From: Promethearchaeota archaeon
GTDB lineage: Archaea; Asgardarchaeota; Thorarchaeia; Thorarchaeales; Thorarchaeaceae
DNA length: 18,937 bases
NCBI GenBank assembly: GCA_027031765.1
Contig: JALVPN010000199.1
Location: 6,428-25,364, forward strand
Reading direction: 5' to 3'
Part shown: one piece after another, positions 3,350 through 18,936 of the stretch
How the letters are laid out: every line of letters starts with the position of its first letter
Position numbering within the stretch: position 1 is the first letter of the stretch
Program-made: the position numbers and the translations under genes
Notes under the pieces: model-generated
What the model was told of the DNA's origin: nothing
Database searches by the model: none
The model's input: only the letters and a program-made list of their open reading frames with translations

Positions 3350-3535
3350 ATGCGGGACGACCCGTGTGCACCGTACTGGCTGTACGGCTGCATGTGTCTG
3401 GGCAGCGCCTGTACCGGCCAGTGTCCGGACATAGAATACCTGTGCATGGGATACCTGCTACCGGACAGCCATCGTGAGGGCCATCACAGCCTTCTGCACG
3501 TGCAGACGGCTCTCAGCGATGTCGTACACGATTGA
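3350..3535 (+). CDS. Possible small Cys-rich peptide (6 Cys in the first 32 aa)
   Basis: MRDDPCAPYWLYGCMCLGSACTGQCPDIEYLCMG. In the non-overlapping part 27 of 35 codons end in G/C. Against it: weak SD and a 78-nt convergent overlap with the carbamoyltransferase 3' end. Confidence 0.3.
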   Translation: MRDDPCAPYWLYGCMCLGSACTGQCPDIEYLCMGYLLPDSHREGHHSLLHVQTALSDVVHD

Positions 3536-4489
3536 CCGCGGGCCGTCGCACACCTCATCTGTGACCTCAGCCCCCCGGTCCACTGGCCCACAGTGCATGA
3601 AGTACGCGTCGTTGGTGAGCGACATCCACTCGCTCGTGCACGTCCAGTCCTCGTGGCGGGCAGCAAGTCCTATCTCACGTTGCTTCGCAGCCTCGACCCC
3701 ACGTTCCCGGGCCGTGTCGTAGAAGCCACTGGTCATCCAGTTGCGGGAGTACACAAAGTCAGCCCTGCGATACCCCTCCTCAAGGTCGTGCACAACCTCA
3801 AACCTGCCGCCTGACTCCTCGGCGTTCTCCTCGCACCACCGCATGACCTCGGGGTCAAGGTCGTACCCCTCGGGATAGGCCAGTGTCACGTCCGTCCCCA
3901 GCCGCGTGTTTATCAGGATGCTCTCCTGCACCGAGCACCATGACCTCACGAGGGCGCCCTGCGCCCACACCTGGAGCAACTTCTTGCCCCTGGGGTCACG
4001 CCCGGCATGCATCCGCATCCCCATGATGTCTGCAAGGCCTTGGCAGGGATGGAACCTGTCGTGGGCCATTGATATCACGGGCACGCTTGCCCACCGGGCA
4101 TACTCCTCAAGCAGCTCGTGCCCCTGACCATAGTACTCCAGGGCGGTCTCAAGCACCCGGATGCCAATCCCACAGGCATATCGGCTCATCACGTTGGCAG
4201 CGTCCTGGACCGTCTCACCGGCCGTCTTCGCAGACTTCAGACGCATCGACCTCGGCTCAAGGAACTGTGCATGCCCACCGAGTTCGGTCGCAGCACACTC
4301 GAAGGACTGACGTGTCCGTACGGAGGGGTTGTAGAAGAACATGAAGAATGTCCGCCTGTCAAGGCAGTTGTTCAGTGGGTGGTCGAACCGCCGCGCCTTG
4401 AAGTCAAATGCGAGCTCCAGCGTCCTCTCGATCTCATCAACGGTCCAGTCCTGTGTGCATAGCAGGTCACGGTTGTACAGTGTGTTCAT
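3458..4489 (-). CDS. Aspartate/ornithine carbamoyltransferase-superfamily enzyme, divergent paralog 1 (substrate uncertain)
   Basis: Carbamoyl-phosphate motif FFYNPSVRTRQSFE, HPCQGLAD, C-terminal [38 protein letters not shown]. The start is moved from TTG 4501 to ATG 4489 (MNTLYNRDLL aligns with the RDF motif of paralog 2). Confidence 0.9.
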   Translation of the reverse strand: MNTLYNRDLLCTQDWTVDEIERTLELAFDFKARRFDHPLNNCLDRRTFFMFFYNPSVRTRQSFECAATELGGHAQFLEPRSMRLKSAKTAGETVQDAANVMSRYACGIGIRVLETALEYYGQGHELLEEYARWASVPVISMAHDRFHPCQGLADIMGMRMHAGRDPRGKKLLQVWAQGALVRSWCSVQESILINTRLGTDVTLAYPEGYDLDPEVMRWCEENAEESGGRFEVVHDLEEGYRRADFVYSRNWMTSGFYDTARERGVEAAKQREIGLAARHEDWTCTSEWMSLTNDAYFMHCGPVDRGAEVTDEVCDGPRSIVYDIAESRLHVQKAVMALTMAVR

Positions 4490-4525
4490 CGCAGTCCACA
4501 AGACGACCGCTGTGCACCACCAAGG

Positions 4526-5407: not shown

Positions 5408-6454
5408 CTAGCGCATTGTGAGGGCCATCACGGCCTTCTGTACGTGCAGACGGTTCTCGGCCTGGTCGAAGACCACGGACTGGGGGCCGTCAATGACGCT
5501 GTTCGTCACCTCGAAGCCCCTGTCACATGGGAGGCAGTGCATGTAGACGGCCTTTGGACCGGCAGTCCTCATCTTCTCGTCATCGCAGATCCAGTGCTTG
5601 TTCTTGTCGAAGAGCTCCTGGGACTTGTCGAGCTCGGGTGTTGGGTTCCACGGTGGGATGGAGCCGCGGCAGGTCCAGGCCTTTGGGTACACGACGTCGG
5701 CACCCTCGAACGCCTCGTCCATGTCGTAGACGATGTCGAAGCCCGAGCCGTTCTCCTCGGCGTACTGTCTGCACTTGGCAATGACCTCGTCATCGAGTTC
5801 CATGCCCTTCGGGTGGGCCAGGACCGTGTCCATGCCCATCTTTGTGGCTGCGATGACAGCGCTCTGGGGCACTGCGAGGGGCTTGTGGACGGAGGGCGAG
5901 TAGGCCCAGCTCATCACGAAACGGACACCCCGGAAGGTGCCGAACTTCTCCTTGACAGTGAGGAGGTCAGCAAGGGCCTGACACGGGTGGTACTTGTCGT
6001 CCTCCATGTTTATGACCGGTATGTCAGCCCAGTACGCAAAGTTGTTCACGATCTCATTGGCACGGCCATAGACCCAGCCCACGGGCTCACCATAGCACCG
6101 GATGGCAATGCCATGGCCCATGCGTGAGAGCACGCGCGCAACGTCTGAGACCCGCTCTGTAGAGTACGCCTTCTCGTCGCCCTCAAGGGCAGGGGCGTAT
6201 ATCTTGCTGGGGTCGAGGAAGTGGGCGTGACCACCCAGCTGCGTCATCCCGGCCTCGAAGGAGTTGCGGGTCCGCAGGGACTGGTTGTAGAAGATCATGA
6301 ACAGCGTCTTCGTGTCCAGCAGCTTGTGTGGCTCGCCGACAGCGAACTTGCGCTTCAGGTCCAGTGCCACTTCGAGGAGCGTCTCGACCTCCTCGCGGCT
6401 GTAGTCGAGGAGGGTTATGAAGTCCCTGCCTCTGAAAGACTCCGTCTTCACCAT
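5408..6454 (-). CDS. Carbamoyltransferase paralog 2, YgeW/N-acetylornithine-transcarbamylase-like branch
   Basis: [39 protein letters not shown] (resembles YgeW WAYSPS..KPL.VPQ as recalled), [13 protein letters not shown] and [15 protein letters not shown] at 6454 is preferred over GTG at 6463. Confidence 0.9.
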
Positions 6455-6716
6455 GGTGACCACAGACCACAGCCCTACGCGGGGCGTCAGAAAAACGTAT
6501 GGATGGCAACGACGACGTGGAGGATTGGCGGGGGGTCAGGACGGACGGAGTGGTGCGGACGCGTGCGGTGTACCGGGCAGGTACTGGAGCTGCAACAGCA
6601 CGACAAGTAGTGCCAACACGCAGACAACAGACCTACAACAGGTTGTGACACGACCCACACAAAATGAGTTATGTAGTGGAACACTGTATGTAGGCAGTGT
6701 ACGGAAGTGTTACTAT

Positions 6717-9700
6717 ATGCCTGCGGGACGGGGTGCTCTTGCAATTGCAATATTGTGTTCACTCACTCTCGTCACACCCGTTGTGATGGCAGTAGTGGAC
6801 ACCATGACGTGCAGGCCGCTCCAGACGGGGGATGCGGCTGTGACCGGGGACGCACCATCCGTACTGGTCAAGTGGGGGCGTCCTGTGAGTGACAAGGTGA
6901 CCGCCCCCGCAGCGCTCGTGGACCTGACCGGGGACGGCGTACTGGACGTCGTCATCGGAGACCTCTCTGGCCGCCTCTACGGCTTCCGTGGCAACAATGG
7001 GGACACCCTGTGGACGCTCGACCTTGGCAGTGCCGTGACGGGACAGCCCGCAGTCGGCTGGTACCCCCTGACAGGCGGCGGTGACTCGGGGGAAAGTACG
7101 GTACCATATGTCTTCGTGCAGGCCAACAACCGTGTGTATGCAGTCTTTGGCCTCAACGGCACCACCCTGTGGGAGCATGCCCTCGCCTCCGAACAGTTCA
7201 CAGCCCCTGCGGTCACAGATGTCGACGGGGACGCGTGGCCGGACATCGTGATCGGTGCACACAACGGAGGACTGCTGGCGCTCGCTGGTGCCAATGGCTC
7301 TGTGCTATGGACAAGGGACGACCTCGGCAACGTCATGTATGCACCGAGCGTAGCAGATGTGGACTGTGACGGGGACCTGGAGGTAGTGGTAGGTGCATTT
7401 GGTGGCAAGGTCTACGTGATCAGCGCCATAAACGGCACCACCGTGTGGAGCAGGGAGCCACCCGGTGACCCGGCCACGCCCATCTCGGTGGGGGACGTCA
7501 ACCGTGATGGGAGGCCGGAGCTCGTGTACGGCTCCTTTGACAACCGCGTGCACGTGCTGAGTGGAGAGGACGGTTCCACGCTGTGGTTCGGGAACGCAGT
7601 GAACGACATAACAACGACGCCGGCACTTGCGGACATAGACGGTGACGGTGATGTCGAGGTCGTTGTGGGGGCAGCCAACGGGGACGACTCGTTGTACGCC
7701 TTCAACGGTGTCACGGGCGAGCGCAAGTGGAGGTACACGGCACCAGACTACAGTGTGCGTGCGGCCGCGATATGCGGCGGGAGCACCGTGCATGGGCTTG
7801 ACATTGTGCTCTCGGTCGACAATACGCGGCTGACGTGCATCAATGGCACGTCTGGGGAGAGGACATGGTATCTCAACCTCAATGGGGCCCTGACGTGCGC
7901 CCCGGTCGCCGGCAACCTCGATGACGACCCGGATGTCGAGGTCGTGTTCGGCACGTACGGGAGCTATGTCTACGCGGTGGACATCGAGGGCGCCGGGTAC
8001 CGTGTCTACTGGCAGGGAGAGTGTGGAGACCCGTGGTGCTCTGGGACACGTGACCTCGGGGCCATAGACCCGGACATGGACGGCCTCTCATCGTACAGCG
8101 AACAGTTCACAGGGACAGACGCCAGAGACAATGACACTGACGGGGACGGCATGCCCGATGGGTGGGAGGTGTGGCATGGCCTTGACCCCGTAGACGACGA
8201 CGGGGACGCTGACCCCGACATGGACGGCCTACCGAACCGCTATGAGTACGGGAACCGGACGCTACCGGATGACCCGGACACCGATGATGACGGCATGTAT
8301 GATGGCTACGAGGCAGACTATGGCCTTGACCCGTTGACCGATGATGCCCTGGAAGACCCCGACAGCGATGGGCTCATCAACCTCGTAGAGTTCGCTGCCG
8401 GGACCCGTCCTGATACCGACGACACGGACGGCGACGGCATGGACGACCTCTACGAGTACGTCTCAGGGCTTGACCCGGTGGTCGATGACAGCCTGCTCGA
8501 CCTTGACGGCGACGGCCTGACGAACATCGACGAGTACTCACTCGGGACACTGGTGAACAGTAGCGACAGCGATGCGGACGGCATGCCGGACGGCTGGGAG
8601 GTCGACCATGGCCTCGACCCGTTGTCTGATGACAGGTATGACGACCCCGATGGTGACCGCCTGGCGAACCTGTGGGAGTACCTGGACGGTACGGACCCCC
8701 ACGACCCCGACTCCGATGGTGACGGGATGCCTGATGGCTGGGAGGCCCTGAACGACCTCGACCCACTCACACCAGACCGACTCGCCGACCCCGACTCCGA
8801 TAGTCTGACCAACATACAGGAGTACGCCCTCGGTACGCTCCCCACCGACAGCGACACGGACGGCGATGCCATGCCTGACGGCTGGGAGGTCGACCATGGC
8901 CTTGACCCGCTGTTTGGCGACGGGGCCAACGACCCTGACAGTGACGGCCTGTCCAACGTAGAGGAGTACGTTGCCGGTACGGACCCCCATGACAATGACA
9001 CTGATGGTGACGGCATGCCTGACGGCTGGGAAGTGCAGCACGGCTTCAATGCGACGTACGACGACGCAGCAGCAGACCCCGACGACGATGGCCTGACCGA
9101 CCTCGAGGAGTACCGGCTGGGCACCCTGCCGACTGAGGCCGACACCGACGGGGACGGCCTGCCCGATGGCTGGGAGGTACAGCACCACCTGGACCCCACG
9201 AGCCGCGACTCACACCTTGACCGGGACAACGATGGCCTCTGTGGACTCGACGAGTACGCTGCTGGTACAGACCCCGAGGACCCGGACACTGACATTGATG
9301 GCCTCCTCGATGGCACAGAGGTACGCCTGGGACAGGACCCGCTCTCACCGCGGGATGCAACTGTCGGGCTGGTGCTGCTCAACATACATGTGATAGTGAC
9401 AGCATGGCTGGTGGCGGCGGGGACCATTGTCTGGCGGAGGGAGGACATCCTCGTATGGCTATGGAGGTGGAGGCGCGGCCAGACCGCCGGGTGGGACACC
9501 GACCGCATCGTGGAGTGGCTCACGGCTGACGACGACGACAGGTCAGAGGCCACCCGCGTGGTGCGGGAGGCGTATGCCCTCTGCATGGAGGGGGGCCGCC
9601 TGCTCGAGCAGTCTGACTACGGGGGCGCGAGAGATATGTTCGGCAGGGCACTGGCGACAGTGCGTCACCACTCGGGCGTCCTCGGACCCGTCCAGCCGGA

Positions 9701-9767
9701 GATAGTACAGTTTGTGGTCGCGGAGGCAGAGGCTGGACTCTCACTGGCCATCAGCAGGGGGCGCTAG
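6717..9767 (+). CDS. Single-pass cell-surface protein: signal peptide, FG-GAP/PQQ-type beta-propeller, Ca-binding TSP3-like repeats, TM helix and TPR-like cytoplasmic tail
   Basis: ATG at 6717 starts a signal-like segment ([25 protein letters not shown]). Eight blades carry D(V/L/I)DGDG..(D/E)VV.G and G..LW motifs (about 6903-8060), followed by 18 DxDxDG-type repeats (8067-9350), a hydrophobic helix (9363-9434) and a helical tail. The ORF-track extension 6417-6716 looks non-coding. Confidence 0.9.
8067..9350 (+). repeat. Intragenic tandem repeat: nine 144-nt (48-aa) units of alternating 22-aa and 26-aa Ca-binding motifs (last unit shorter)
   Basis: Units start at 8067, 8211, 8355, 8499, 8643, 8787, 8931, 9075 and 9219, exactly 144 nt apart. 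Consensus [48 protein letters not shown]. Confidence 0.95.
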
Positions 9768-9788: not shown

Positions 9789-10763
9789 CTACGGCTCAAG
9801 ACGTACCTGGACCGGTGCTTTCCACGACTGGACCAGTGCAGTGAGGTGCTCCTCAGCCCGGTCAGTACCGTAGACTGCGTGCAGGAGCCTCCGTAGACGT
9901 GGGATGTGTGGTGCCCTCAGGCGGGTGTCAGCACCGGGGTAGTGGAGCTCGTCTGCACTTTCGAAGACGGCCCGGGCGTCAAGGAATGCAGGCCTGTCGG
10001 CAGAGTGGACGCCCAGTGCCCGCAGCACACCGGTCAGTCCACCATGACGGCGCAGGAGCCGGACGCCACGTCTGGGGCCGACACCACGGATTCCCGGGTG
10101 GAAGTCGCAGCCACAGAGCACTGCGAGGTCTCTGAGGCCCTCCAGGTCCAGGCCAGTGGTGCTCATCAGCCTGGCCAGACCCGTCGATTCGACGAGTCCC
10201 CGTGACGTGTGGACGTGACGGGACACATGTGGTGCCCCGAAGAGCAGCGTGTCGACGTCATTCGAGACCGCCGTGCCCACGAGGCCGTCACGACACAGTG
10301 CAGCTGCGGCCATCTCCGCCTCCGAGGGGGCCCTCACAGTGGGGACGCCCGCTGCAGAACAGAGGTCGAGGAGGTGCTGCGCGGCAAAGTAGGTCATGAC
10401 AGCAGGCGACTCGTGGAGCGTCCTCGCCAGCCCGGTGTCGTAGATGTCCGGCGAGGCGGCAAACCTGCGGTACAGTGCAGCACCGCGTGCCACGGTGGTA
10501 GCGTCCGGACGACGCTTGAGCGAGTCGGGGGGCCCGTCGAAGACGAACACGGGGGTCACGCCCAGTCGCAGGAGGCCAGTGACGAGCCTGAGGGCCACGT
10601 GGACGTGACCGGTAGGCACACGCTCGCAGTAGCGACTGGGGCGCATCATGACCGACATGCCACGGATCATGTAGTTGAACATGTCGACTGCCACCGCAGC
10701 CGGCCGGAGCGCACCAATGGGGCCCCAGTCCCACCGTACAAAGTCCCAGCCATGCACCCCCAA
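9789..10763 (-). CDS. FEN1/XPG-family structure-specific nuclease (divergent flap endonuclease paralog)
   Basis: AVDMFNY, PVFVFDGPP, APSEAEMAAA, SNDVDTLLFGAP and the H2TH motif LCGCDFHPGIRGVGPRRG; the catalytic acidic residues are retained. The start is set to TTG 10763 because it gives the canonical MGV N-terminus with SD GAGGTG (10772-10777) 8 nt upstream. Confidence 0.88.
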   Translation of the reverse strand: MGVHGWDFVRWDWGPIGALRPAAVAVDMFNYMIRGMSVMMRPSRYCERVPTGHVHVALRLVTGLLRLGVTPVFVFDGPPDSLKRRPDATTVARGAALYRRFAASPDIYDTGLARTLHESPAVMTYFAAQHLLDLCSAAGVPTVRAPSEAEMAAAALCRDGLVGTAVSNDVDTLLFGAPHVSRHVHTSRGLVESTGLARLMSTTGLDLEGLRDLAVLCGCDFHPGIRGVGPRRGVRLLRRHGGLTGVLRALGVHSADRPAFLDARAVFESADELHYPGADTRLRAPHIPRLRRLLHAVYGTDRAEEHLTALVQSWKAPVQVRLEP

Positions 10764-10768
10764 GTCGC

Positions 10769-11551
10769 TCACACCTCACGGATAGAGTGGAGACCGGTAC
10801 TGTCCACACGGACGACCACTGACGGGCACTGTAGTCGTACCGGGGCCCGTTCGACCGTCACACGCACGAAGCCGGAGGCCGGGTCGACCATGTCAATGCG
10901 GACCATTGAGTCGACGGCATGCGACAGGACGTTCCCACCGACCACTCTGGACTCACCGGTCAATGGGTGCTTTGAAGAGTGGTCAGTTGCCACCATGTGG
11001 AGGCCGCTGTCGAGCAGCACGTTGCGGACAGCCTCGAGTGCACGGAACAGCCTCCGCTGCCGCCCGCGGGTACCGGGTGGCACCGACAGGTTGAGGACTC
11101 CGGTCAGACTGTCCAGCACCACCAGCGAGGCACCAGGTACACCGGCCACCCTCTGGAGGCGGTCCTCAAGGTCTGAGAGTGACAGGACGCGGCCCACGAC
11201 CACCCTCTGCAACGCGCCCCGAGGACAGTCCCTGAGAAGGCTGCGCAGGAGGCGGGGCCTGCAGTTCGTCCCCGAGTCGAGGAAGATGCATGTGCCGCCA
11301 GCACGTACCGCACCACTGGCAAGCTCGTGGGCGAGTAGCGTGAGCAGCCCGCGCTCGTTGCCATGGACGAGGGTCAGCTGTCGTTCGACAATGATGGGTG
11401 CCAGCAGGGTGTTGAGCTGGTCGGGAGACAACCGGACGAGCGGCTGGCCGTGGTCACTGGCCTCGTCAAGCCGTACGCGTCCCACCGGTCTCACCCCCGC
11501 TGCTGACAGTGCCCCTCTCCACACTGACCGGGGCCTGCAGGAGACAGACAT
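10769..11551 (-). CDS. RadA/Rad51-family paralog with a degenerate Walker A (probably not an ATPase)
   Basis: LTLVHGNERGLLT at the P-loop position, CIFLDSGTNCRPRLL (compare YIDTENTFRPERL), Walker B LVVLDSLTG and GGNVLSHAVDSMVRI (compare Rad51 GGHILAH). The start is uncertain: ATG 11551, or GTG 11485 which reduces the overlap with the upstream gene to 20 nt. Confidence 0.8.
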   Translation of the reverse strand: MSVSCRPRSVWRGALSAAGVRPVGRVRLDEASDHGQPLVRLSPDQLNTLLAPIIVERQLTLVHGNERGLLTLLAHELASGAVRAGGTCIFLDSGTNCRPRLLRSLLRDCPRGALQRVVVGRVLSLSDLEDRLQRVAGVPGASLVVLDSLTGVLNLSVPPGTRGRQRRLFRALEAVRNVLLDSGLHMVATDHSSKHPLTGESRVVGGNVLSHAVDSMVRIDMVDPASGFVRVTVERAPVRLQCPSVVVRVDSTGLHSIREV

Positions 11552-12422
11552 CAAGTACCCCCTCTCTTTGAAGGGGCGCGCCCGACAGCACTGCACAGTC
11601 CGCAAGGTGGACAACACAGGCCAGACCGTCACCGTGGGGACACACAACCATGCCCCGGGGCTGCTCCAGCAGCAGCCGGTCGACGGACTCGGGGTCGGTC
11701 ACCAGCACGTACTCATCGATGGGCAGGCCGACACGTTCTTGGAGCAGCGGGAGGGCCACCGCGGCCAGCGCGAGGAGTGGCGGTGCCCTCGCTACCGGGG
11801 ACACGCCTGCCGAGGCCAGGAGCCGCGGCACCTGACGTGCCCGGGGGTCAGCCTGACGTACCACCACGAGGTCGGCCCCCTCAGTGTGTACCAGACATAC
11901 CGGGAGGCCTTCCCGGCCCCGGAGGAGCGGGACGACACCTTCGAGCATGCCCTCCGGGAGTACGAGCACCAAGACATCACGTAGTAGTGGGCCTGCGTGC
12001 TGCCATGGTGCACCCAGTACCCCGACCCCTGCAGTACCTGACGACACAGGCGCACTGGCCGACATGTCGAGCAAGGACTGGAAGAGGTCGCGGAACCGTT
12101 GCGGGTCGCGGGTAGCAGCACCCAGGAGCAGGACGACCGTAGACGCAGCGACCGCCACTGCGAGGCCACCGGCAAGCGACGCGATGAACACAGAGACGTA
12201 GGTAAGGCCCAGACACAGGTACCCCGCATACTCGACAGTACGGGCTGTCCTCCCCTTGAGCCGTGTCGTCCCAGTGCGGAGCAGGGACAGTGCGAGCACT
12301 GCCAGGACAGAGAGTGGGAGCGGGTTGCCCAGTCGCAGGCTGGCCACGACGGCCGTGACAAGCGCCAACAGGTACGACCCGGCCAACAGGAGTACCAGCG
12401 CGGCCAGGCTCAGCTTGATCAT
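11466..12422 (-). CDS. Hypothetical membrane protein (about 4 N-terminal TM helices plus a soluble C-terminal domain)
   Basis: ATG at 12422 forms an ATGA overlap with the stop of the upstream RadB-like gene. Four hydrophobic segments lie in the first ~105 aa. Confidence 0.75.
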   Translation of the reverse strand: MIKLSLAALVLLLAGSYLLALVTAVVASLRLGNPLPLSVLAVLALSLLRTGTTRLKGRTARTVEYAGYLCLGLTYVSVFIASLAGGLAVAVAASTVVLLLGAATRDPQRFRDLFQSLLDMSASAPVSSGTAGVGVLGAPWQHAGPLLRDVLVLVLPEGMLEGVVPLLRGREGLPVCLVHTEGADLVVVRQADPRARQVPRLLASAGVSPVARAPPLLALAAVALPLLQERVGLPIDEYVLVTDPESVDRLLLEQPRGMVVCPHGDGLACVVHLADCAVLSGAPLQREGVLDVCLLQAPVSVERGTVSSGGETGGTRTA

Positions 12423-13195
12423 ACGGAACACGAGTCCTCCGAACACCTCGACACCCCCATTGCAGACGTGCCAGGCCTCCCCGTCGCCGCTGCTGACACT
12501 ACTGCCCCGGCCGTGGGGCCCCGGTCAGGGGACGGACGACCGCCTGCCTCAGGACCTCTGCCACCAGACTCGAACTCTACGGCGCCATCTGCACGCACCC
12601 ACATCCTGCCCAGGAGGCCCCGGCCACCCACCTCGACGACCTCTGAGGCCGGGTCACCGGCAGGCCCGCGTCTGAGCAGGAGGTCATGGTCTGCCCAGCG
12701 CCGGATGGCCGCGTAGCACACTGGCACTGTGCCCTCGGCTCCCAGGTACCTGCACTCGCTGGTCAGGATGACCGGCACCCGTCGTGTCCTGCTCATTGCT
12801 GCAAGCGTTGGCAGCACCTCTTCGAAGAGTTCCCGGCCCCACATGATGTCGTCCTGGAACGACATGTCGAGCACGCGGGTCACCGGGTCGACGACCACAA
12901 GGCCCAGGTCGGCGGGTGGAGCACTACACAGTGTCAGGACAGCCCTCCGCGCCTCATCGGGGCTGCGCGTGACCTCCACCGTGATGTTCGACGCGACACC
13001 TCCAAGGACACACACGTTCCTCCTGAGGTGCGTCACCACGCTTGTCTTCAGGTCAGTACAGAACCAGTGCACGCAGGAGTGGCTGCTGGCCTCTGCCGCG
13101 AGGCGGGACGCGAACACCGTCTTGCCGGCCCCAGACAGGCCCCAGACATGGACAATGCCACGTAGGCCGAGCCGGTGCATCAGGCCACTCCGCAC
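12419..13195 (-). CDS. RadB-like RecA-superfamily ATPase
   Basis: Walker A GLSGAGKT (13118-13141), Walker B LVVVDPVT and VPVILTSE. The start is set to GTG 13195, one base after the upstream stop (ATG 13180 is the alternative). The ORF-track extension to 13444 overlaps the neighbouring gene. Confidence 0.82.
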   Translation of the reverse strand: MRSGLMHRLGLRGIVHVWGLSGAGKTVFASRLAAEASSHSCVHWFCTDLKTSVVTHLRRNVCVLGGVASNITVEVTRSPDEARRAVLTLCSAPPADLGLVVVDPVTRVLDMSFQDDIMWGRELFEEVLPTLAAMSRTRRVPVILTSECRYLGAEGTVPVCYAAIRRWADHDLLLRRGPAGDPASEVVEVGGRGLLGRMWVRADGAVEFESGGRGPEAGGRPSPDRGPTAGAVVSAAATGRPGTSAMGVSRCSEDSCSV

Positions 13196-13196
13196 C

Positions 13197-14927
13197 TCAT
13201 GCGCCCTCACTACCGGGCACCTCCTCGCGTCCCACGTCCGCAGGCGCGTGCACACCCATGCTGTCACCAATACCAGCACCAGCAACTGACGCGGTACTGA
13301 CCCCAGTAGCTCCACCACCAGCGTCATCTCCCGTGCTGAAGTCCTGGTCTGCAGGGCCACCACCTGGAGCGCCCGTCCCAACAGCACTCGTAGCACCCGG
13401 ACTATCAGTGGCCCCTGCACCAGCGGTGCTGTCAGCCCCTCCACCTGATGTGCCCCCGGCCAGTGAGTCCAGTGCTGAGTCGATCATGCGGTCGAGCAGG
13501 TCGCGCACCTCATCATCATCGTCATCGTCCGCCTTCCCATCACCGTGCGCAGGGGCGTCATGGCCGCTGTTGGCCGTAGGGCTGTCGTCTCCACTCTCAC
13601 TGCCATCGCTCTCCTCAAGTGCCCTGTCGAGCTCGCGCACGACGAGCCTCATGCTCCAGTCATTGAGGGTGTCGTCCAGGGTGCGTTTCAGGTCGGCAGA
13701 CAGGATGCCACCCATGAAGAGGGCGTTGTTCAGGGTGCCGAGGTGCTCGACGAGCTCGCCCTCCGAGAGGGGTGACGCACCGCTCCCTGAGAGGGACGCA
13801 TATGCCAAGGCCAGTGCAGAGTCCATCTCGGGGTCGACGACGCCGACAGCGTGGAACACCGACAGGAACATGTCGAGTGCACGGTCACCCAGGCCCACAG
13901 TGCCACTGGGGAGCGCCATCTCACCAGCAGCACGCACCAGCTCGTCAATCACCGCGTCCGCATAGCGCATCGCAAGGGGTGCGTCCCGGTCGCACAGTGC
14001 GTCACAGACCGACGCCATCAGCGCCGAGACCGTCACGGTGAGTTCCCTGACGAGGGAGCCCACGAGAGAGTGCTCACTGAGCGAGTCCCGGATACGCCCC
14101 CCGTCAGCCACCGCATAGAGGGCCTCCAGCTCGTCTGAGCGGGCGCCCTCGAACTTGAGCATGGCGCTCCTCGAAGAGGACAGCAGGACGAGCGCTGCCA
14201 CAGAGGCGGCCACCACAATCACAGACGCGAGCGTGTCAGGGGCCCTGCCGGAAAGGAGGCCCTGCAGGACAGGGACCAGACCCGTCGCAGCCAGGACGAG
14301 GGCCAGCAGTCCAGACCAGCCGTGTGAGACGGAACGTGTGCGCGCAGCCCACTTGCCGGGACAGACAACACCACGTACATCCGCGTGGACGGCACGGGCG
14401 TCGCTGCTGAGCGCGAGTGCGAACTCACTGGAGCTGAGCACACGCGAGCTTGTGGTCAGCCACGACAGGTCGACCGAGGGCGGGACGTCCTGTGCCACCA
14501 CATACACGGTACGCGTCACCAGTGGGACGGACCCCGCCTGCGAGCCCGTGGGAGAGACCGTTTCGAGGGAGACGCGTCCCCAGGGGGTCAGGGTGGTCCA
14601 CTGGCCTGTCTCCTGGGCCAGCCCTGTGTCACGCAGCAGCTCGTCCAGCGGCATGTTCACCCTGTCGAGGATGACGGCCCTCCTGCCGGGTGTTACGTGT
14701 CGCTGGAGGCCTGCGCCCTCCGCATCGAGCACAGACACAATGTCGACATGGACGCTGCGCGAGCCCGGAACCCCGGACAGGCGCACGCCCATGACAATGC
14801 CACCGGGATAGGCGGTGGCCGAGTAGCCGGAAGAACGGAGGGCCCGCATGACCTCGGCGCCAGTGCGGCCGACCGAGGCCGGGTCGTCCTCTCCCAGTGC
14901 TGTACTGGTACCATGTCCTATCATCAT
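13197..14927 (-). CDS. Hypothetical membrane-anchored protein (2 central TM helices, helical domain, ~140-aa acidic low-complexity tail)
   Basis: ATGA overlap with the helicase stop and a GGTGA SD. Hydrophobic pair WSGLLALVLAATGLVPVL and LASVIVVAASVAALVLL. The tail (13197-13616) is rich in D/E/G/S/A. Confidence 0.78.
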   Translation of the reverse strand: MMIGHGTSTALGEDDPASVGRTGAEVMRALRSSGYSATAYPGGIVMGVRLSGVPGSRSVHVDIVSVLDAEGAGLQRHVTPGRRAVILDRVNMPLDELLRDTGLAQETGQWTTLTPWGRVSLETVSPTGSQAGSVPLVTRTVYVVAQDVPPSVDLSWLTTSSRVLSSSEFALALSSDARAVHADVRGVVCPGKWAARTRSVSHGWSGLLALVLAATGLVPVLQGLLSGRAPDTLASVIVVAASVAALVLLSSSRSAMLKFEGARSDELEALYAVADGGRIRDSLSEHSLVGSLVRELTVTVSALMASVCDALCDRDAPLAMRYADAVIDELVRAAGEMALPSGTVGLGDRALDMFLSVFHAVGVVDPEMDSALALAYASLSGSGASPLSEGELVEHLGTLNNALFMGGILSADLKRTLDDTLNDWSMRLVVRELDRALEESDGSESGDDSPTANSGHDAPAHGDGKADDDDDDEVRDLLDRMIDSALDSLAGGTSGGGADSTAGAGATDSPGATSAVGTGAPGGGPADQDFSTGDDAGGGATGVSTASVAGAGIGDSMGVHAPADVGREEVPGSEGA

Positions 14928-17119
14928 ACTACATCACCACTACTATCATCTCTGAGCCTGACCTCGAGGTCTTCGAACAGCCGGCGTGCCATCTCTGCGA
15001 CCCGGGCCATGCCAGTGACGTCAGCGACCCCCGCGATGGAGTAGGTGAGCCAGCGCGAGGTGTCCATCAGCGACACCAGGTCCCTGTATGAGACGCCACT
15101 GTACTCAGCGACCTCGTCCAGCGGCGTCCGCGTGGTCACCGCCATCAGGAGTGCCTGCTGGAGCTGGTCGTCCACACGCTGGCCGGTCTCAAGGGCGACC
15201 ATGTGCCTGAGCAGTGCAACGAGCCCGTCGGCCGAGTCAACCACCGACATGAGTGGCAGCACCTCACGCAGGGTGGTCGGACGCAGGTACAGCCGGCACA
15301 CTGTCCTGCCAAGTGCGGTCGGCCGCAGGGCCCCAGACTCGCCGCCCTCCACAAGCCCCAGCCGGACGAGCATGGACAGGGGGCTCGCCTCACTGAGTGC
15401 CAGCGGGACTACAAAGTCGGCCAGGGCCTGGTGCTCCGTGGCAGCGGCCACCCCGAGGGCCACGAGGTGAGTGCAGAGGATGCCGTCATCAGAGATGGGA
15501 GAGCCGCAGGAACACATGGGCCCGTCGATGACGCCGGCCGGGTCAGTGCGCAGTGAGAAACGACACACATGGCTGCTGCCAGCTGTCGAGTGCACAATCC
15601 CACCGATGACCCGGTCACTCACCTCGCGCACCTCTACGTGCCCGAGCACGCCCTCGCGGGCAGCGGCGAGCGTGGTGGACAGGGCGTGCCTCCCAATGGC
15701 TGCCAGGGCGGTCATGTCGGCAATGCTGAACAGGCGCCCCCGGGCACCGCCGTCCCACCTGCTACAGTGTGCATAGAACGACTCGAGCAGCACACCGTCC
15801 TCCAGGTCCTCCACCGCCGCGCTGCCCAGCCAGTCCAGGAGGACGAGGACCTGCTCTGCGAGGGCGTCGGGGTCGCCGAGGGCGCTCCTCACAGGTGCGA
15901 AGCGTGCGACGAGCACCTCCTCGCCCGTCCGCGGGTCCTGCCGCCGCCCGCCACCCGCACTGATCACACGTGCCGACTCACCACGACTCGATGTGAGGAC
16001 GATGCCAAAGCCCATGCGGTCACGCCCCGGACGTCCGGCCCTGCCAAGCATCTGGTGGACGAGGTTGGGGTCCAGGAGGTCGTCTGGACTGCCCGGCGAG
16101 CGTGCAGAGGTAAGGATGACCGTCCTTGCCGGGAGGTCCATGCCGACAGCGAGTGTGGTCGTCGAGCAGACCACCCGCACGAGGCCACGGGTGAAGAGCT
16201 GTTCCACGAGCGCCCTGGCAGAGGGCGCCAGACCGGCATGGTGGTAGGCCACACCAGATGGGAGGAGGCCGCTCAGGTCAGGGGGTAGCTGCACGCCCCA
16301 GTTCTCAATCGAGGACAGCTGCCCCTGCGACTCGCGCTGCTCCTCCGAGGTCAGGTGGCGCTGTACCTCCGGTGCGAGGGCGGCGGCAGTAGACTCCGCC
16401 TCCCTGCGGCTCTGGGTGAACACAAGCACCTGGCCATCTGCCTGCACAGTGGTCATCACGAGCTCTTGGAGCAGTGCTGCACGCTGACGGGTGGCGAGCA
16501 CGTGACACGAGAGCGGTACGGGGCGTTCGCTGGACTCCACGAGCTCGGCGCCCAGCCAGTCTGCGAGCACTTCTGGTGAGCCCACGGTGGCGGACAGGCC
16601 GATGAGCTGCAGCCCGGGCACGAGTTGGCGGAGGCGCATTATCAGTCCTTCGAGGCGGGCACCACGCACAGGGTCTGACAGCATGTGCACCTCGTCGATG
16701 ACCACCGTGCCGACCGACTCCAGCCATGATGCCCTGTGTCTGAGCAGCGAGTCCGCGCGTTCGTAGGTCGTCACCAGCAGGTCGTACTCGCCGAGCTCCT
16801 CGGGCGTGCGGTAGTAGTCGCCACTGCTCACACCAACACTGATGCCAAGGGGTGCGTACCGTTCGCTGAGGACCGTGGCCACCTGCCGTGCCAGGGCCCG
16901 CAGTGGTGTCAGGTAGAGGCCACGCCGGCCCGACGAGACCGCCCGCAGGAGGGCCATCTCACCGACCATGGTCTTGCCAGAACCAGTGGGGCTGACCACA
17001 AGGACGTTGCGGCCCTCCAGCAGCCCACGTCCGACAGCCTCCTTCTGTATGCCACGGGGACGGAGGCCCGCTCTTGCCAGCAGGTCCTTGACACCAGTTG
17101 TCCGGCACACCTCTGTCAT
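14924..17119 (-). CDS. Ski2/Hel308-like SF2 DExH helicase with an inserted SWIM zinc finger
   Basis: Q motif GIQKEAV, SPTGSGKT, PLRALA, TTYERADSL, DEVH, SAT, YHHAG, STTTLAVGMDLPA and QMLGRAGRPG. Winged-helix and ratchet-like segments (RPTALGRTVCRLYLRP; MDTSRWLTYSI). CSC-x10-CTHLVA at 15467-15514. ATGA overlap with the upstream gene. Confidence 0.93.
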   Translation of the reverse strand: MTEVCRTTGVKDLLARAGLRPRGIQKEAVGRGLLEGRNVLVVSPTGSGKTMVGEMALLRAVSSGRRGLYLTPLRALARQVATVLSERYAPLGISVGVSSGDYYRTPEELGEYDLLVTTYERADSLLRHRASWLESVGTVVIDEVHMLSDPVRGARLEGLIMRLRQLVPGLQLIGLSATVGSPEVLADWLGAELVESSERPVPLSCHVLATRQRAALLQELVMTTVQADGQVLVFTQSRREAESTAAALAPEVQRHLTSEEQRESQGQLSSIENWGVQLPPDLSGLLPSGVAYHHAGLAPSARALVEQLFTRGLVRVVCSTTTLAVGMDLPARTVILTSARSPGSPDDLLDPNLVHQMLGRAGRPGRDRMGFGIVLTSSRGESARVISAGGGRRQDPRTGEEVLVARFAPVRSALGDPDALAEQVLVLLDWLGSAAVEDLEDGVLLESFYAHCSRWDGGARGRLFSIADMTALAAIGRHALSTTLAAAREGVLGHVEVREVSDRVIGGIVHSTAGSSHVCRFSLRTDPAGVIDGPMCSCGSPISDDGILCTHLVALGVAAATEHQALADFVVPLALSEASPLSMLVRLGLVEGGESGALRPTALGRTVCRLYLRPTTLREVLPLMSVVDSADGLVALLRHMVALETGQRVDDQLQQALLMAVTTRTPLDEVAEYSGVSYRDLVSLMDTSRWLTYSIAGVADVTGMARVAEMARRLFEDLEVRLRDDSSGDVV

Positions 17120-18936
17120 GTCCCGACCCCCTGTGAGTCCTCGTACTGCCTCAACGCCATCTCGCCCTTCATTGTGATCCGGTAGTTCTGGTACGACACG
17201 CCACTGTGCACCTCGTGACCACGCAACACCATGCTCGCATGTTCCAGACGCATGAGGACGGCCTGCACGTCAGCACCGGGGTGTCCACTTGCCTGGACGA
17301 ACCGCCTGACAGACTCCTCGGTCAGTGGCGAGTACCTCCGGAGGAGGCGCAGCACCTCGACCGCAACACCCACATCACGGCCAACAGCGGTCTCGAGGAG
17401 CGACTGCGCACCGGGAGCAGGCAGTCCCTCCGGTGGCCGTGCAGGCGCGACCCCTGACAGCCGGCGCCGGAGCTCCTCGTCTGATGGTGCCACCATCTGT
17501 GGACAGTCGTCGAGCCGGACAGGCACAGCGAGCTCCTCACCGCTCCGGGCCAGCAACACCATCCCGTCAGGGAGGACACGCAGGAACGAGGTCTCACGTG
17601 GTGACCAGCGGGCCTTTGTGTGGAGGCCAGTCGTGAGCACTGACAGGCCCAGGGCGCCCGAGACCACACCGAGGTCGTACTTGTTCTTCAGACGCAGGGA
17701 TATGCATGCCGAGAGCTGTTCGATGACGCCGGTCGGCAACGACGATGGCTGTGACACACTGACCACCAAAGGCCCACGACCCATCAGCTGCCTGACACGC
17801 CGCTCGGCCCACGGGGCCCTGTCGCTGAGGCGTGTCCCCTGTACGGTGAGGTCCGAGGGGCCGTCGAGGACAACCACCAGAGCGGGGTCAGCCTCAAGGC
17901 CGAGGAGTTTGAGAGAGAAGAGCTCCCACGCGAACATGTCCAGCATGTCGGAACCCGTCTTCAGGACGACCACAGAGAGCGGGGCGGACACGATGTCTGC
18001 GATGTCCACCGTCTGGTGCCCGTAGAAACACGCGGCGCCCGGGCCCTGGTACAGCGTCCTGATGGCCTCCATGCCACTCGCGGTCGCCCTCGACAGCTGC
18101 TGTGCCTGACCGGGGACGTCACTGTTGGCGTCCGTAGCATCAAGTGTGACGTCAGCGACAGTAGCCGACCCCAGGGCCACAGCCCGGCTCAGGGCGACCT
18201 CAAGGTCGACAGCGGTGGTGAGCGGCATGCCGGCCAACACCTCCAGCGCCCGCTTGAGGCCCGCCACGTACTCCCTGTGTCCCACCCCCTCAGGGTCCAC
18301 CGGGTTCAGGACGAGGTCGCGGCCGAGGACAAGACCGAGGGCAGAGGGGTCGAGGGCTGCAAGTGCAAGCCTGGACTCATCAGATGTGACTACGAGGACG
18401 CGGTTTCCAGCCGACAACAGGCCACTGGTCAGCAGGCCAAGCACATGGAGCCGCTCGTCGGCCGTGCCACCACAGAGCAACACACCGCGCGCCAGTTCTC
18501 CGTGCACGAGTCCTACGGGTGGCCCCTCAGTCAGCGTGTCCGGGCTCACCGAGTAGCCGATGCGGTACTCGTACGGACGGCCCCGGATTGGTGCGACGAA
18601 CTGGCCTGGGACACTGCTCCCGACCTCCGAGGCCAGCTCACTGGCAAGGCGTACGAGCCAGTCCTTGAGCTCCCGGCCGGCAGCAAAGAAGCCCGGCCAC
18701 GAGAGGGGGACATCACAGTCGAGGACGGAGCGCTCGAGGTCGTCTGGGGACACGGCTGTCAGCGTACTGAGGGGCACAGTGGCACGGACAGCGGTCTCGA
18801 AGGCCTGCGCCTCACGGGTGTCCAGGGTGTGGCCCATGACCGCAGCAGTGACCTCCCAGAGACCGCCACGTGCCAGCGAGAAGGCGTCAGCGGCACCGCC
18901 TGTGAGCCGGTAGAGGAACTCCTCCACATCCGGGGC
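17116..18936 (-). CDS. HerA/VirB4/FtsK-superfamily ATPase-like protein with degenerate Walker motifs and a C-terminal winged helix (5' end outside the window)
   Basis: The frame is open to the right edge. GVLLCGGTADERL at the Walker A position, LVLNPVDP, an all-helical insertion, LVVVLDGP at Walker B, VSVSQPSSLP..VIEQLSACISLRL (HerA Q.P motif) and C-terminal VLMRLEHASMV...NYRITMKG. Confidence 0.75.
   Translation of the reverse strand, partial: APDVEEFLYRLTGGAADAFSLARGGLWEVTAAVMGHTLDTREAQAFETAVRATVPLSTLTAVSPDDLERSVLDCDVPLSWPGFFAAGRELKDWLVRLASELASEVGSSVPGQFVAPIRGRPYEYRIGYSVSPDTLTEGPPVGLVHGELARGVLLCGGTADERLHVLGLLTSGLLSAGNRVLVVTSDESRLALAALDPSALGLVLGRDLVLNPVDPEGVGHREYVAGLKRALEVLAGMPLTTAVDLEVALSRAVALGSATVADVTLDATDANSDVPGQAQQLSRATASGMEAIRTLYQGPGAACFYGHQTVDIADIVSAPLSVVVLKTGSDMLDMFAWELFSLKLLGLEADPALVVVLDGPSDLTVQGTRLSDRAPWAERRVRQLMGRGPLVVSVSQPSSLPTGVIEQLSACISLRLKNKYDLGVVSGALGLSVLTTGLHTKARWSPRETSFLRVLPDGMVLLARSGEELAVPVRLDDCPQMVAPSDEELRRRLSGVAPARPPEGLPAPGAQSLLETAVGRDVGVAVEVLRLLRRYSPLTEESVRRFVQASGHPGADVQAVLMRLEHASMVLRGHEVHSGVSYQNYRITMKGEMALRQYEDSQGVGT

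Follow-up and report, generated by a model that had tools for sequence, protein, structure and literature searches.

A stretch of 18,937 nucleotides from a Promethearchaeota archaeon of the Thorarchaeaceae (GenBank assembly GCA_027031765.1, contig JALVPN010000199.1, positions 6,428–25,364), referred to here as the window, encodes a 731-residue helicase of the Hel308 lineage in which a SWIM zinc-finger module appears to be inserted into the winged-helix (WH) domain and from which the C-terminal helix-hairpin-helix (HhH) domain 5 is missing. This architecture, consisting of a Hel308 core, a SWIM insert within a split WH domain and the loss of domain 5, is close to certain. The best overall explanation, to which roughly even credence is given, is that the protein would be a Hel308-lineage motor serving a recombination operon, with the SWIM module as an outward-facing docking platform. 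Coordinates of the gene, its domains and its neighbors are collected in Table 1.

The motor core is that of a Hel308/Ski2-like member of helicase superfamily 2 (SF2): two RecA domains carry motifs I, II (DExH), III and VI, and the best matches of the protein in both sequence and fold comparisons are to Hel308/Hjm. A PDB sequence search aligned residues 25–382 with the Hel308 chains 9b15 and 2p6r, and further collinear pieces were aligned with the Archaeoglobus fulgidus enzyme, residues 594–628 with its residues 470–507 and residues 667–717 with its residues 576–626. The last piece lies in the ratchet domain 4 characteristic of these helicases, for which the Pfam model Helicase_dom4_arc gave 18 bits (E 0.002) in the window protein; 34 of 36 family members match this model, and a Baldrarchaeial homolog (P0078) reaches 60.8 bits. 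The protein thereby shares its RecA1–RecA2 motifs, WH domain 3 and ratchet domain 4 with archaeal Hel308/Hjm (2p6r, 2va8, 2zj2) and with the helicase domains of HELQ and POLQ, while it differs from Hel308/Hjm in the presence of the SWIM module and the absence of domain 5. The NCBIfam equivalog models for Hel308 were not reached, with scores of 281–344 bits against cut-offs of 887–1216 (344 versus 887 for NF002654 and 281 versus 1200 for NF040935) and matches confined to approximately residues 10–386. Because of this shortfall and the missing domain 5, the protein is Hel308-like yet not Hel308 proper. Its genome also encodes a canonical Hel308 of 745 residues, with a contiguous WH domain and a GRVRAR HhH tail. 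A preliminary description of the window, made from the sequence alone, had proposed a distinct helicase subfamily, and this proposal is supported for a Hel308-like subfamily, of which the window protein is a paralog beside canonical Hel308. Judged from its motifs, the protein is most likely an active DNA helicase of the Hel308 lineage (Ski2-like SF2) that belongs to an Asgard-specific subfamily.

The position of the insert was deduced from an AlphaFold2 (AF2) model of residues 405–612 (m93972e449cfd), which was based on a diverse alignment and had a mean predicted local distance difference test score of 86.9 (~90 in the insert). VIA comparisons matched model residues 6–207 to residues 419–499 of S. 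solfataricus Hel308 (2va8_B; Z 10.9, root-mean-square deviation (rmsd) 2.0, 80 residues aligned) and model residues 4–208 to residues 403–488 of A. fulgidus Hel308 (2p6r_A; Z 10.1, 85 aligned), the superposition on the Archaeoglobus enzyme thus spanning the insert. A contiguous WH domain of 81–86 residues is therefore matched from both flanks of the insert, which indicates that the domain is whole but split; in the model, helix 3 and helix 4 of WH domain 3 are separated by 114 inserted residues. The preliminary description had placed ~127 residues between the two WH halves, and its minus-strand coordinates 15386–15766 correspond to residues 452–578. The separation itself stood, while the length was revised to the 114 residues delimited by alignment with a canonical Hel308 (P0086).

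Several features of the insert are those of a SWIM finger. The β-strands and the CSC-x10-CTH motif that had been read from the sequence were both recovered: the AF2 model predicts strands at residues 494–500, 504–510, 516–525 and 531–536, preceded by two short helices, with the CxC pair at the end of the last strand of the four-stranded sheet and a helix starting at the CxH pair, which is the sheet-then-helix order of the SWIM fold. The C536-x-C538-x10-C549-x-H551 pattern arose in 76 of 200,000 shuffles of the 731-residue protein, and its spacer of ten residues falls inside the range of 6–16 that is typical of the CxCxnCxH signature (PMC5727457). The four putative ligands are kept in all family members; they account for four of the seven invariant columns in an alignment of 32 homologs (16–54% identity), and they are the sole invariant columns in an insert-only alignment (n = 23).

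Database evidence for this identity is transitive. Pfam SWIM gave no match for the window protein or its own insert, even at E ≤ 10, which counts against the assignment, and among close relatives only 5 of 36 Thorarchaeal (Thor) members match, all at E ≥ 0.56. The homologous insert of Baldrarchaeial P0078, in contrast, scores 28.8 bits (E 8.6e-7; gathering score 19.6), and that of P0053 scores 19.5 bits. In a shape search of the ESM Atlas, the first row was the protein's own family and the next nine were clusters of SWIM or SNF2_assoc plus SWIM, which cover model residues ~64–162 (protein residues 468–566) over 85–96 residues at an rmsd of 3.2–3.8 Å. A Foldseek search of PDB with the WH-plus-insert model returned nothing at E ≤ 0.001, ZSWIM8 (9rwz_N) standing at rank 9 with E 0.19, and the VIA lists against PDB were filled by the WH domain and contained no insert match, the insert itself being barely probed. 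An insert-only hidden Markov model (HMM) found a single chance-level match to a ribosomal protein among PDB sequences, and a feature-based protein-atlas search with residues 455–590 gave no usable match. By its signature, its predicted fold and the transitive Pfam evidence, the insert is a SWIM finger with a putative Zn site. The original placement of a SWIM module within the Hel308 WH domain is thus upheld by the whole-but-split WH model, its matches to 2va8_B and 2p6r_A, the invariant ligands and the Pfam result for P0078.

The insert is widespread in Asgard archaea. Run against 1.84 billion proteins, a profile of the C-terminal half of the protein retrieved just 40 representatives at E ≤ 1e-3. 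Those that bear a name are without exception Asgard, with members in the Thor-, Hermod-, Jord-, Heimdall-, Baldr- and Lokiarchaeota/Promethearchaeota. A WH-plus-insert profile matched 230 of 400 genomes of the phylum, including 83 of the 85 in the window's own family. Thor genomes usually contain two matches to this profile, the second at ~1e-25 in most genomes of the family. The second SWIM paralog of the window's own genome has 742 residues (contig C110:88229–90325; locus L006:1429–3657, minus strand) and combines a textbook SWIM signature, CxC-x13-CKH, with decayed Walker A and DExH (Walker B) motifs; from its sequence it looks like a pseudo-helicase.

This distribution bears on the idea that the Zn site has no more than a structural role, in which case the insert would be a neutral, lineage-specific decoration that stabilizes the WH domain and has no ligand. 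Across the family, conservation indeed extends no further than the four Zn-ligand positions and a small number of hydrophobic ones. However, at least 230 genomes from many Asgard families still encode the folded module of 100–120 residues, the module is kept even in the paralog with decayed ATPase motifs, and its surface is well conserved within clades, with a mean column identity of 74–75% in the Thor clade. A merely decorative insert is consequently regarded as quite improbable.

An HhH domain 5 with an RxRAR motif was not found in the window protein. The last residues collinear with A. fulgidus Hel308 are followed by the C-terminus at residue 731, four residues past the ratchet domain; no HHH model of Pfam matches; and the downstream gene begins on the helicase stop codon by way of an ATGA overlap. 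The preliminary description was therefore correct in reporting no GIGRVRAR-type HhH. It had also suggested an exchange of the autoinhibitory brake for a Zn-dependent module, or in other words that the SWIM finger took over from domain 5 as an intramolecular, Zn-dependent brake or switch. Domain 5 is known to restrain both ATPase and helicase activity (PMC13623763), and the 731-residue protein has the insert without domain 5, as this explanation requires. Nevertheless, the insert is located on the WH domain, distant in sequence from the hinge between domains 4 and 5, and many family members carry the insert together with a domain 5 of the RVRAR/RVRGR type, which speaks against an origin by replacement. 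Coexistence of the insert with an HHH_5 domain was observed in Baldr (P0078), Heimdall (P0074) and Loki-type (P0084, L038, L040–L042) members and in a Promethearchaeota metagenome-assembled genome (MAG; P0073); the motif reads RVRAR or RVRGR in the Baldr and Loki-type proteins and RVKGR in P0073, and none is evident in P0074. The swap was accordingly abandoned as an account of the origin of this architecture, and a substitute brake is considered improbable as the present function.

Because the insert and domain 5 coexist in other members, the insert is very probably older and the loss of domain 5 later. On these sequences, the ancestor of the subfamily already had the insert, and the window lineage lost domain 5 secondarily; elsewhere, in one lineage, another extension has taken the place of domain 5. 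This order of events is based on the coexistence of insert and domain 5 and not on a tree, since in a maximum-likelihood tree of the helicase core the backbone was not resolved and the pseudo-helicase paralog lay on a long branch, so that domain 5 losses could not be counted. In five Loki-type genomes (G170, G185, G203, G228 and G268; 92–100% complete), canonical Hel308 has no full-length match other than the SWIM-bearing gene, which is also the best match, and at the loci concerned (L038, L040–L042) the same gene also carries domain 5. The SWIM helicases of family f18 (L039:8535–11198; P0079) are 884–887 residues long and end in a C-terminal extension of ~150 residues instead of an HhH domain 5.

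The genomic context of the window protein differs from that of most copies with domain 5. Seven co-directional genes in the window encode, in order, a HerA-like protein, the helicase, a protein with two transmembrane (TM) helices, a RadB-like protein, a multi-TM protein, a RadB-like pseudo-ATPase and a FEN1-like protein. ATGA overlaps at both junctions of the helicase gene with its neighbors couple it translationally into a conserved operon, which comprises a RadA paralog (RadA2), the two RadB-like genes, an XPD paralog (XPD2), the FEN1-like gene, the degenerate HerA-like gene and the genes for membrane proteins. The contig (C199) ends within the HerA-like gene, and the rest of the operon was located at the start of contig C221, where the XPD paralog, RadA2 and small open reading frames (ORFs) are found. 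An order of 15 genes is shared by five Thor loci (L001, L002, L043, L044 and L046) and by the window's own genome, split over the two contigs; matches to the upstream XPD, HerA-like and RadA2 genes are absent from a further Thor locus, L045.

Linkage to recombination genes accompanies the loss of domain 5 beyond the Thor clade. In all six families without domain 5 that were sampled (f1, f2, f14, the Jord-type f16, f19, and f18 with its other C-terminal extension), a RadA paralog and/or a RadB-like gene lies within 10 kb of the helicase gene; a HerA-like gene accompanies it in five of them and a FEN1-like gene in four, while linkage to the XPD paralog is seen in Thor and its order. The intact RadB-like gene of the window (12419..13180) is conserved beside SWIM helicases without domain 5 in Thor, in Jord-type genomes and in three further families. 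Helicase genes that still encode domain 5, by comparison, mostly stand alone, and only about two of six such loci show this kind of linkage. RadA proteins of the cluster score 220–342 bits on the RadA model, whereas canonical RadA proteins elsewhere in the same genomes score 460–500 bits, and the window's own genome has, apart from the cluster, a canonical Hel308, an XPD (contig C40) and a second FEN1 (contig C144). Because canonical RadA, XPD, FEN1 and Hel308 are encoded elsewhere, the cluster can be viewed as a second recombination toolkit made up of paralogs, and the helicase probably works with the recombination proteins of the cluster.

Table 1. Features of the SWIM-Hel308 helicase gene and its operon in the window (positions numbered from the first nucleotide of the window).
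Feature	Coordinates	Strand	Residues or size	Evidence and remarks
SWIM-Hel308 helicase gene	14924..17119	-	731 aa	Best PDB sequence matches Hel308 9b15/2p6r, E 4e-72
RecA1 domain	16580..17050	-	24-180	Pfam DEAD E 8e-32; Walker A SPTGSGKT, DEVH and SAT intact
RecA2 domain	15965..16507	-	~205-385	Pfam Helicase_C 290-365, E 7e-11; motif VI QMLGRAGRPG; Hel308 alignment to residue 382
WH domain, N-terminal part (helices H1-H3)	15758..15871	-	417-454	AF2 model; VIA match 2va8_B
Insert (predicted SWIM module)	15416..15757	-	455-568 (114 aa)	Linker, two short helices, four-stranded β-sheet, Zn knuckle, helix
Putative Zn ligands, CxC-x10-CxH	15467..15514	-	C536, C538, C549, H551	Invariant among divergent homologs
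WH domain, C-terminal part (H4, wing hairpin, LGR..RLYL)	15284..15415	-	569-612	Residues 594-628 align with A. fulgidus Hel308 470-507
Ratchet domain 4	14939..15283	-	613-727	Alignment with A. fulgidus Hel308 576-626; weak Pfam Helicase_dom4_arc
HerA/DUF87-like gene, upstream	17116..18936	-		5' end cut by contig end, continues at C221:3-476; PDB profile 8j4u_M E 8.9e-5 and other HerA chains
Downstream protein	13197..14927	-	576 aa	Two predicted TM helices; Thor clade only; matches no known family
RadB-like RecA-fold ATPase	12419..13180	-		GLSGAGKT intact; NCBIfam recomb_radB E 4.9e-6; orthologs carry Pfam Rad51
Multi-TM protein	11466..12446	-		Three to four TM helices; in operon; matches no known family
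Second RadB-like paralog	10769..11449	-		P-loop GNERGLLT, no GK[ST]; recomb_radB E 3.7e-9, whole profile
FEN1/XPG-like nuclease paralog, last operon gene	9789..10772	-		Pfam XPG_I/XPG_N; fen_arch 103 bits versus 352-bit cut-off

Some of the operon products show individual peculiarities. The second RadB-like paralog is, by its sequence, a pseudo-ATPase, because its P-loop is degenerate; it is reminiscent of Rad51 paralogs of the Psy3/Csm2 type. The HerA-like protein has degenerate Walker A (GGT-ADER) and Walker B (VVVLDG) motifs and a C-terminal winged helix-turn-helix; its Thor orthologs have an N-terminal TM region, and the gene is kept beside the helicase gene in several Asgard families. The membrane proteins at 13197–14927 and 11466–12446 hint at a membrane-associated role, for example in DNA uptake or exchange. 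The XPD paralog (L020:1325–3370, minus strand, on contig C221) matches the PADLOC model of the type IV-A CRISPR-associated DinG from end to end (256 bits), with no cas genes nearby. In one Thorarchaeota MAG, the FEN1-like gene (L002:16155–17125) is called as two ORFs of 125 and 178 residues, which may reflect a frameshift or an assembly error. Directly 3' of the operon, on the opposite strand, positions 6417–9767 encode an 1116-residue protein, probably a surface protein, with an FG-GAP/PQQ-type β-propeller and bacterial TSP3 repeats. Farther along, two co-oriented genes of the aspartate/ornithine carbamoyltransferase family (3458–4501 and 5408–6463, both on the minus strand) lie ~900 nt apart.

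Certain of these matches could also be taken to mean that the helicase and its operon form an anti-virus defense system or part of a mobile element, the SWIM finger sensing foreign DNA or a phage protein. The helicase core resembles HamB of the Hachiman system (133 bits in PADLOC), the XPD paralog matches the DinG model, HerA-like proteins occur in several defense systems, and the PDB matches of the HerA-like gene include such complexes. Yet PADLOC recognizes no system here: HamB is hit only by the helicase core and DinG only by the XPD paralog, a HamA or Cas gene is not present, and, with regard to Hachiman (HamAB) in particular, no neighboring gene matches PADLOC as the HamA nuclease. Moreover, the cluster is found in 83 of the 85 family genomes, with a gene order that is kept across genera and looks vertically inherited, no integrase or repeats were seen in the loci read, and the cluster consists of RadA, RadB and FEN1 paralogs. 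A defense function is therefore judged very improbable, even less so to be expected than a purely structural Zn site.

In the favored account, that of a motor with a docking platform, the helicase would drive, as its 3'–5' motor, a machine dedicated to recombination or fork repair. The SWIM module would be an exposed adaptor, facing outward, that docks a partner onto the helicase, and, now that domain 5 with its braking and annealing functions is gone, control would have passed to the operon partners. That the SWIM finger is an interaction module, as first suggested, is plausible. The loop of its putative Zn knuckle is conserved and acidic in the Thor clade (G.P..[DE][DE]GIL), a sequence that fits protein contact better than DNA contact. 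The partner would most plausibly be a RecA-fold protein, either RadA or a RadA paralog. Such a partner is the leading candidate because HELQ binds the RAD51 paralog complex BCDX2 and Hel308 interacts with RadA (PMC13623763); the Asgard helicase itself belongs to the HELQ lineage. The SWIM domain of Shu2 in turn touches the Rad51 paralog Shu1 (PMC5727457). By analogy with these systems, it is tentatively proposed that the SWIM module may dock a RecA-fold partner. A complex prediction for the WH-plus-SWIM fragment and residues 1–200 of the RadB-like ATPase (score 0.03, mark 0.32) gave no verdict and is used neither for nor against binding.

The resemblance to Shu2/SWS1 is one of association. In both cases a SWIM finger is tied to RecA-fold paralogs, Rad51 paralogs for Shu2/SWS1 and RadA/RadB paralogs, one of them a pseudo-ATPase, for the Asgard SWIM finger (typical spacer, n = 10). 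Shu2/SWS1 is, however, a small separate SWIM protein, while the Asgard SWIM finger is part of a helicase and is associated with the paralogs by gene linkage. Godin et al. reportedly described in 2015 a conserved alanine in the CxHxxA motif of Shu2/SWS1. Nothing places the insert in the Shu2/SWS1 family, and this alanine is not conserved among the Asgard helicases.

A number of observations weigh against the docking account. Neither the insert HMM searched against PDB nor Foldseek detected any similarity to Shu2/SWS1 beyond CxC..CxH, and the CxHxxA position, which reads CTHLVA in the window protein, is occupied across the family by A, T, I, K, G, R, L or H. Synteny among related genomes does not constitute independent evidence, and the membrane proteins of the Thor operon suggest a function that goes beyond soluble homologous recombination. 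Finally, the insert is also present in helicases of the Loki and Baldr types, which have no linked RadA paralogs and are the sole Hel308 of their genomes; because these inserts lack linked paralogs, the primary role of the SWIM finger cannot depend on proteins of the cluster.

The Loki and Baldr copies also favor the main rival, in which the SWIM finger would be a nucleic-acid sensor on the WH domain, close to the point at which duplex or branched DNA reaches the motor, binding fork, D-loop or flap DNA directly and setting substrate choice without a protein partner. Outside the Thor clade, the loop of the Zn knuckle has a neutral to basic character (for example, net +4 in P0053 and P0072, +2 in P0078), and the insert comes closest in shape to the SWIM/SNF2_assoc modules found on SNF2 DNA translocases of bacteria. 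Furthermore, the WH domain of Hel308 binds DNA itself (Northall 2017, as cited in PMC13623763), and the SWIM finger was first predicted to bind DNA or proteins (Makarova 2002, as cited in PMC5727457). On the other hand, in the window's clade this loop has a conserved, acidic sequence, the net charge of the whole insert ranges from -4 to +4, and neither Foldseek with the WH-plus-insert model nor the insert HMM against PDB matched a DNA-binding SWIM structure. Direct DNA sensing is thus a doubtful alternative, although it is less remote than the other rivals weighed above.

Docking by an inserted module would have a parallel in other helicases. Mtr4 and Ski2 are likewise Ski2-like and have a large accessory domain, the arch of stalk and KOW, inserted in the WH domain (PMC10946056, Figure 1), where it works as an adaptor and as a platform for substrates. 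Their arch consists of a helical stalk and a KOW barrel, in contrast to the β-sheet and Zn knuckle of the Asgard SWIM insert; they are eukaryotic RNA helicases, and the insertion points are likened at the level of domains, not residue by residue. The nearest predicted shapes to the insert itself come from stand-alone bacterial SWIM proteins and from bacterial SNF2 ATPases with SNF2_assoc (PF08455) and SWIM (PF04434) domains. The latter resemble the Asgard helicase in placing a SWIM finger on an SF2 nucleic-acid motor, but their SWIM domain is N-terminal rather than inserted and their motor is of the Snf2 family rather than Ski2-like. A more far-reaching proposal is that the Asgard SWIM module docks both RadA2 and the RadB-like proteins, the operon being a prokaryotic forerunner that unites the SWS1/Shu2–RAD51 paralog and HELQ–BCDX2 partnerships in one machine, and that a eukaryotic SWIM subunit could have descended, or been exapted, from the insert; this is unlikely, though somewhat less so than a substitute brake.

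Hel308/HELQ has been described, as recently as in a review of September 2026, as having five domains common to archaea and animals (PMC13623763). Within the collection searched, no paper was found that combined Hel308 with SWIM or described such a variant, and a 2024 survey of archaeal Ski2-like helicases makes no mention of the insert. In the Asgards, the archaeal lineage closest to eukaryotes, most Hel308-type helicases have a sixth module, a predicted SWIM Zn finger, in the very domain on which other Ski2-like helicases mount their adaptor arch. Hel308 has been reported absent from 13 of 15 Lokiarchaeota genomes (PMC10946056), and the SWIM form, as the apparent only Hel308 of Loki-type genomes, may bear on this report. 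In Thor-, Jord- and related lineages, the copy that has lost domain 5 is embedded among the duplicated recombination genes of an operon, which offers a compact, tractable system. How Rad51/RadA paralogs cooperate with a Hel308 motor, when domain 5 is needed and what ligands SWIM fingers bind could all be addressed in it, and each of these questions bears on DNA repair in eukaryotes.

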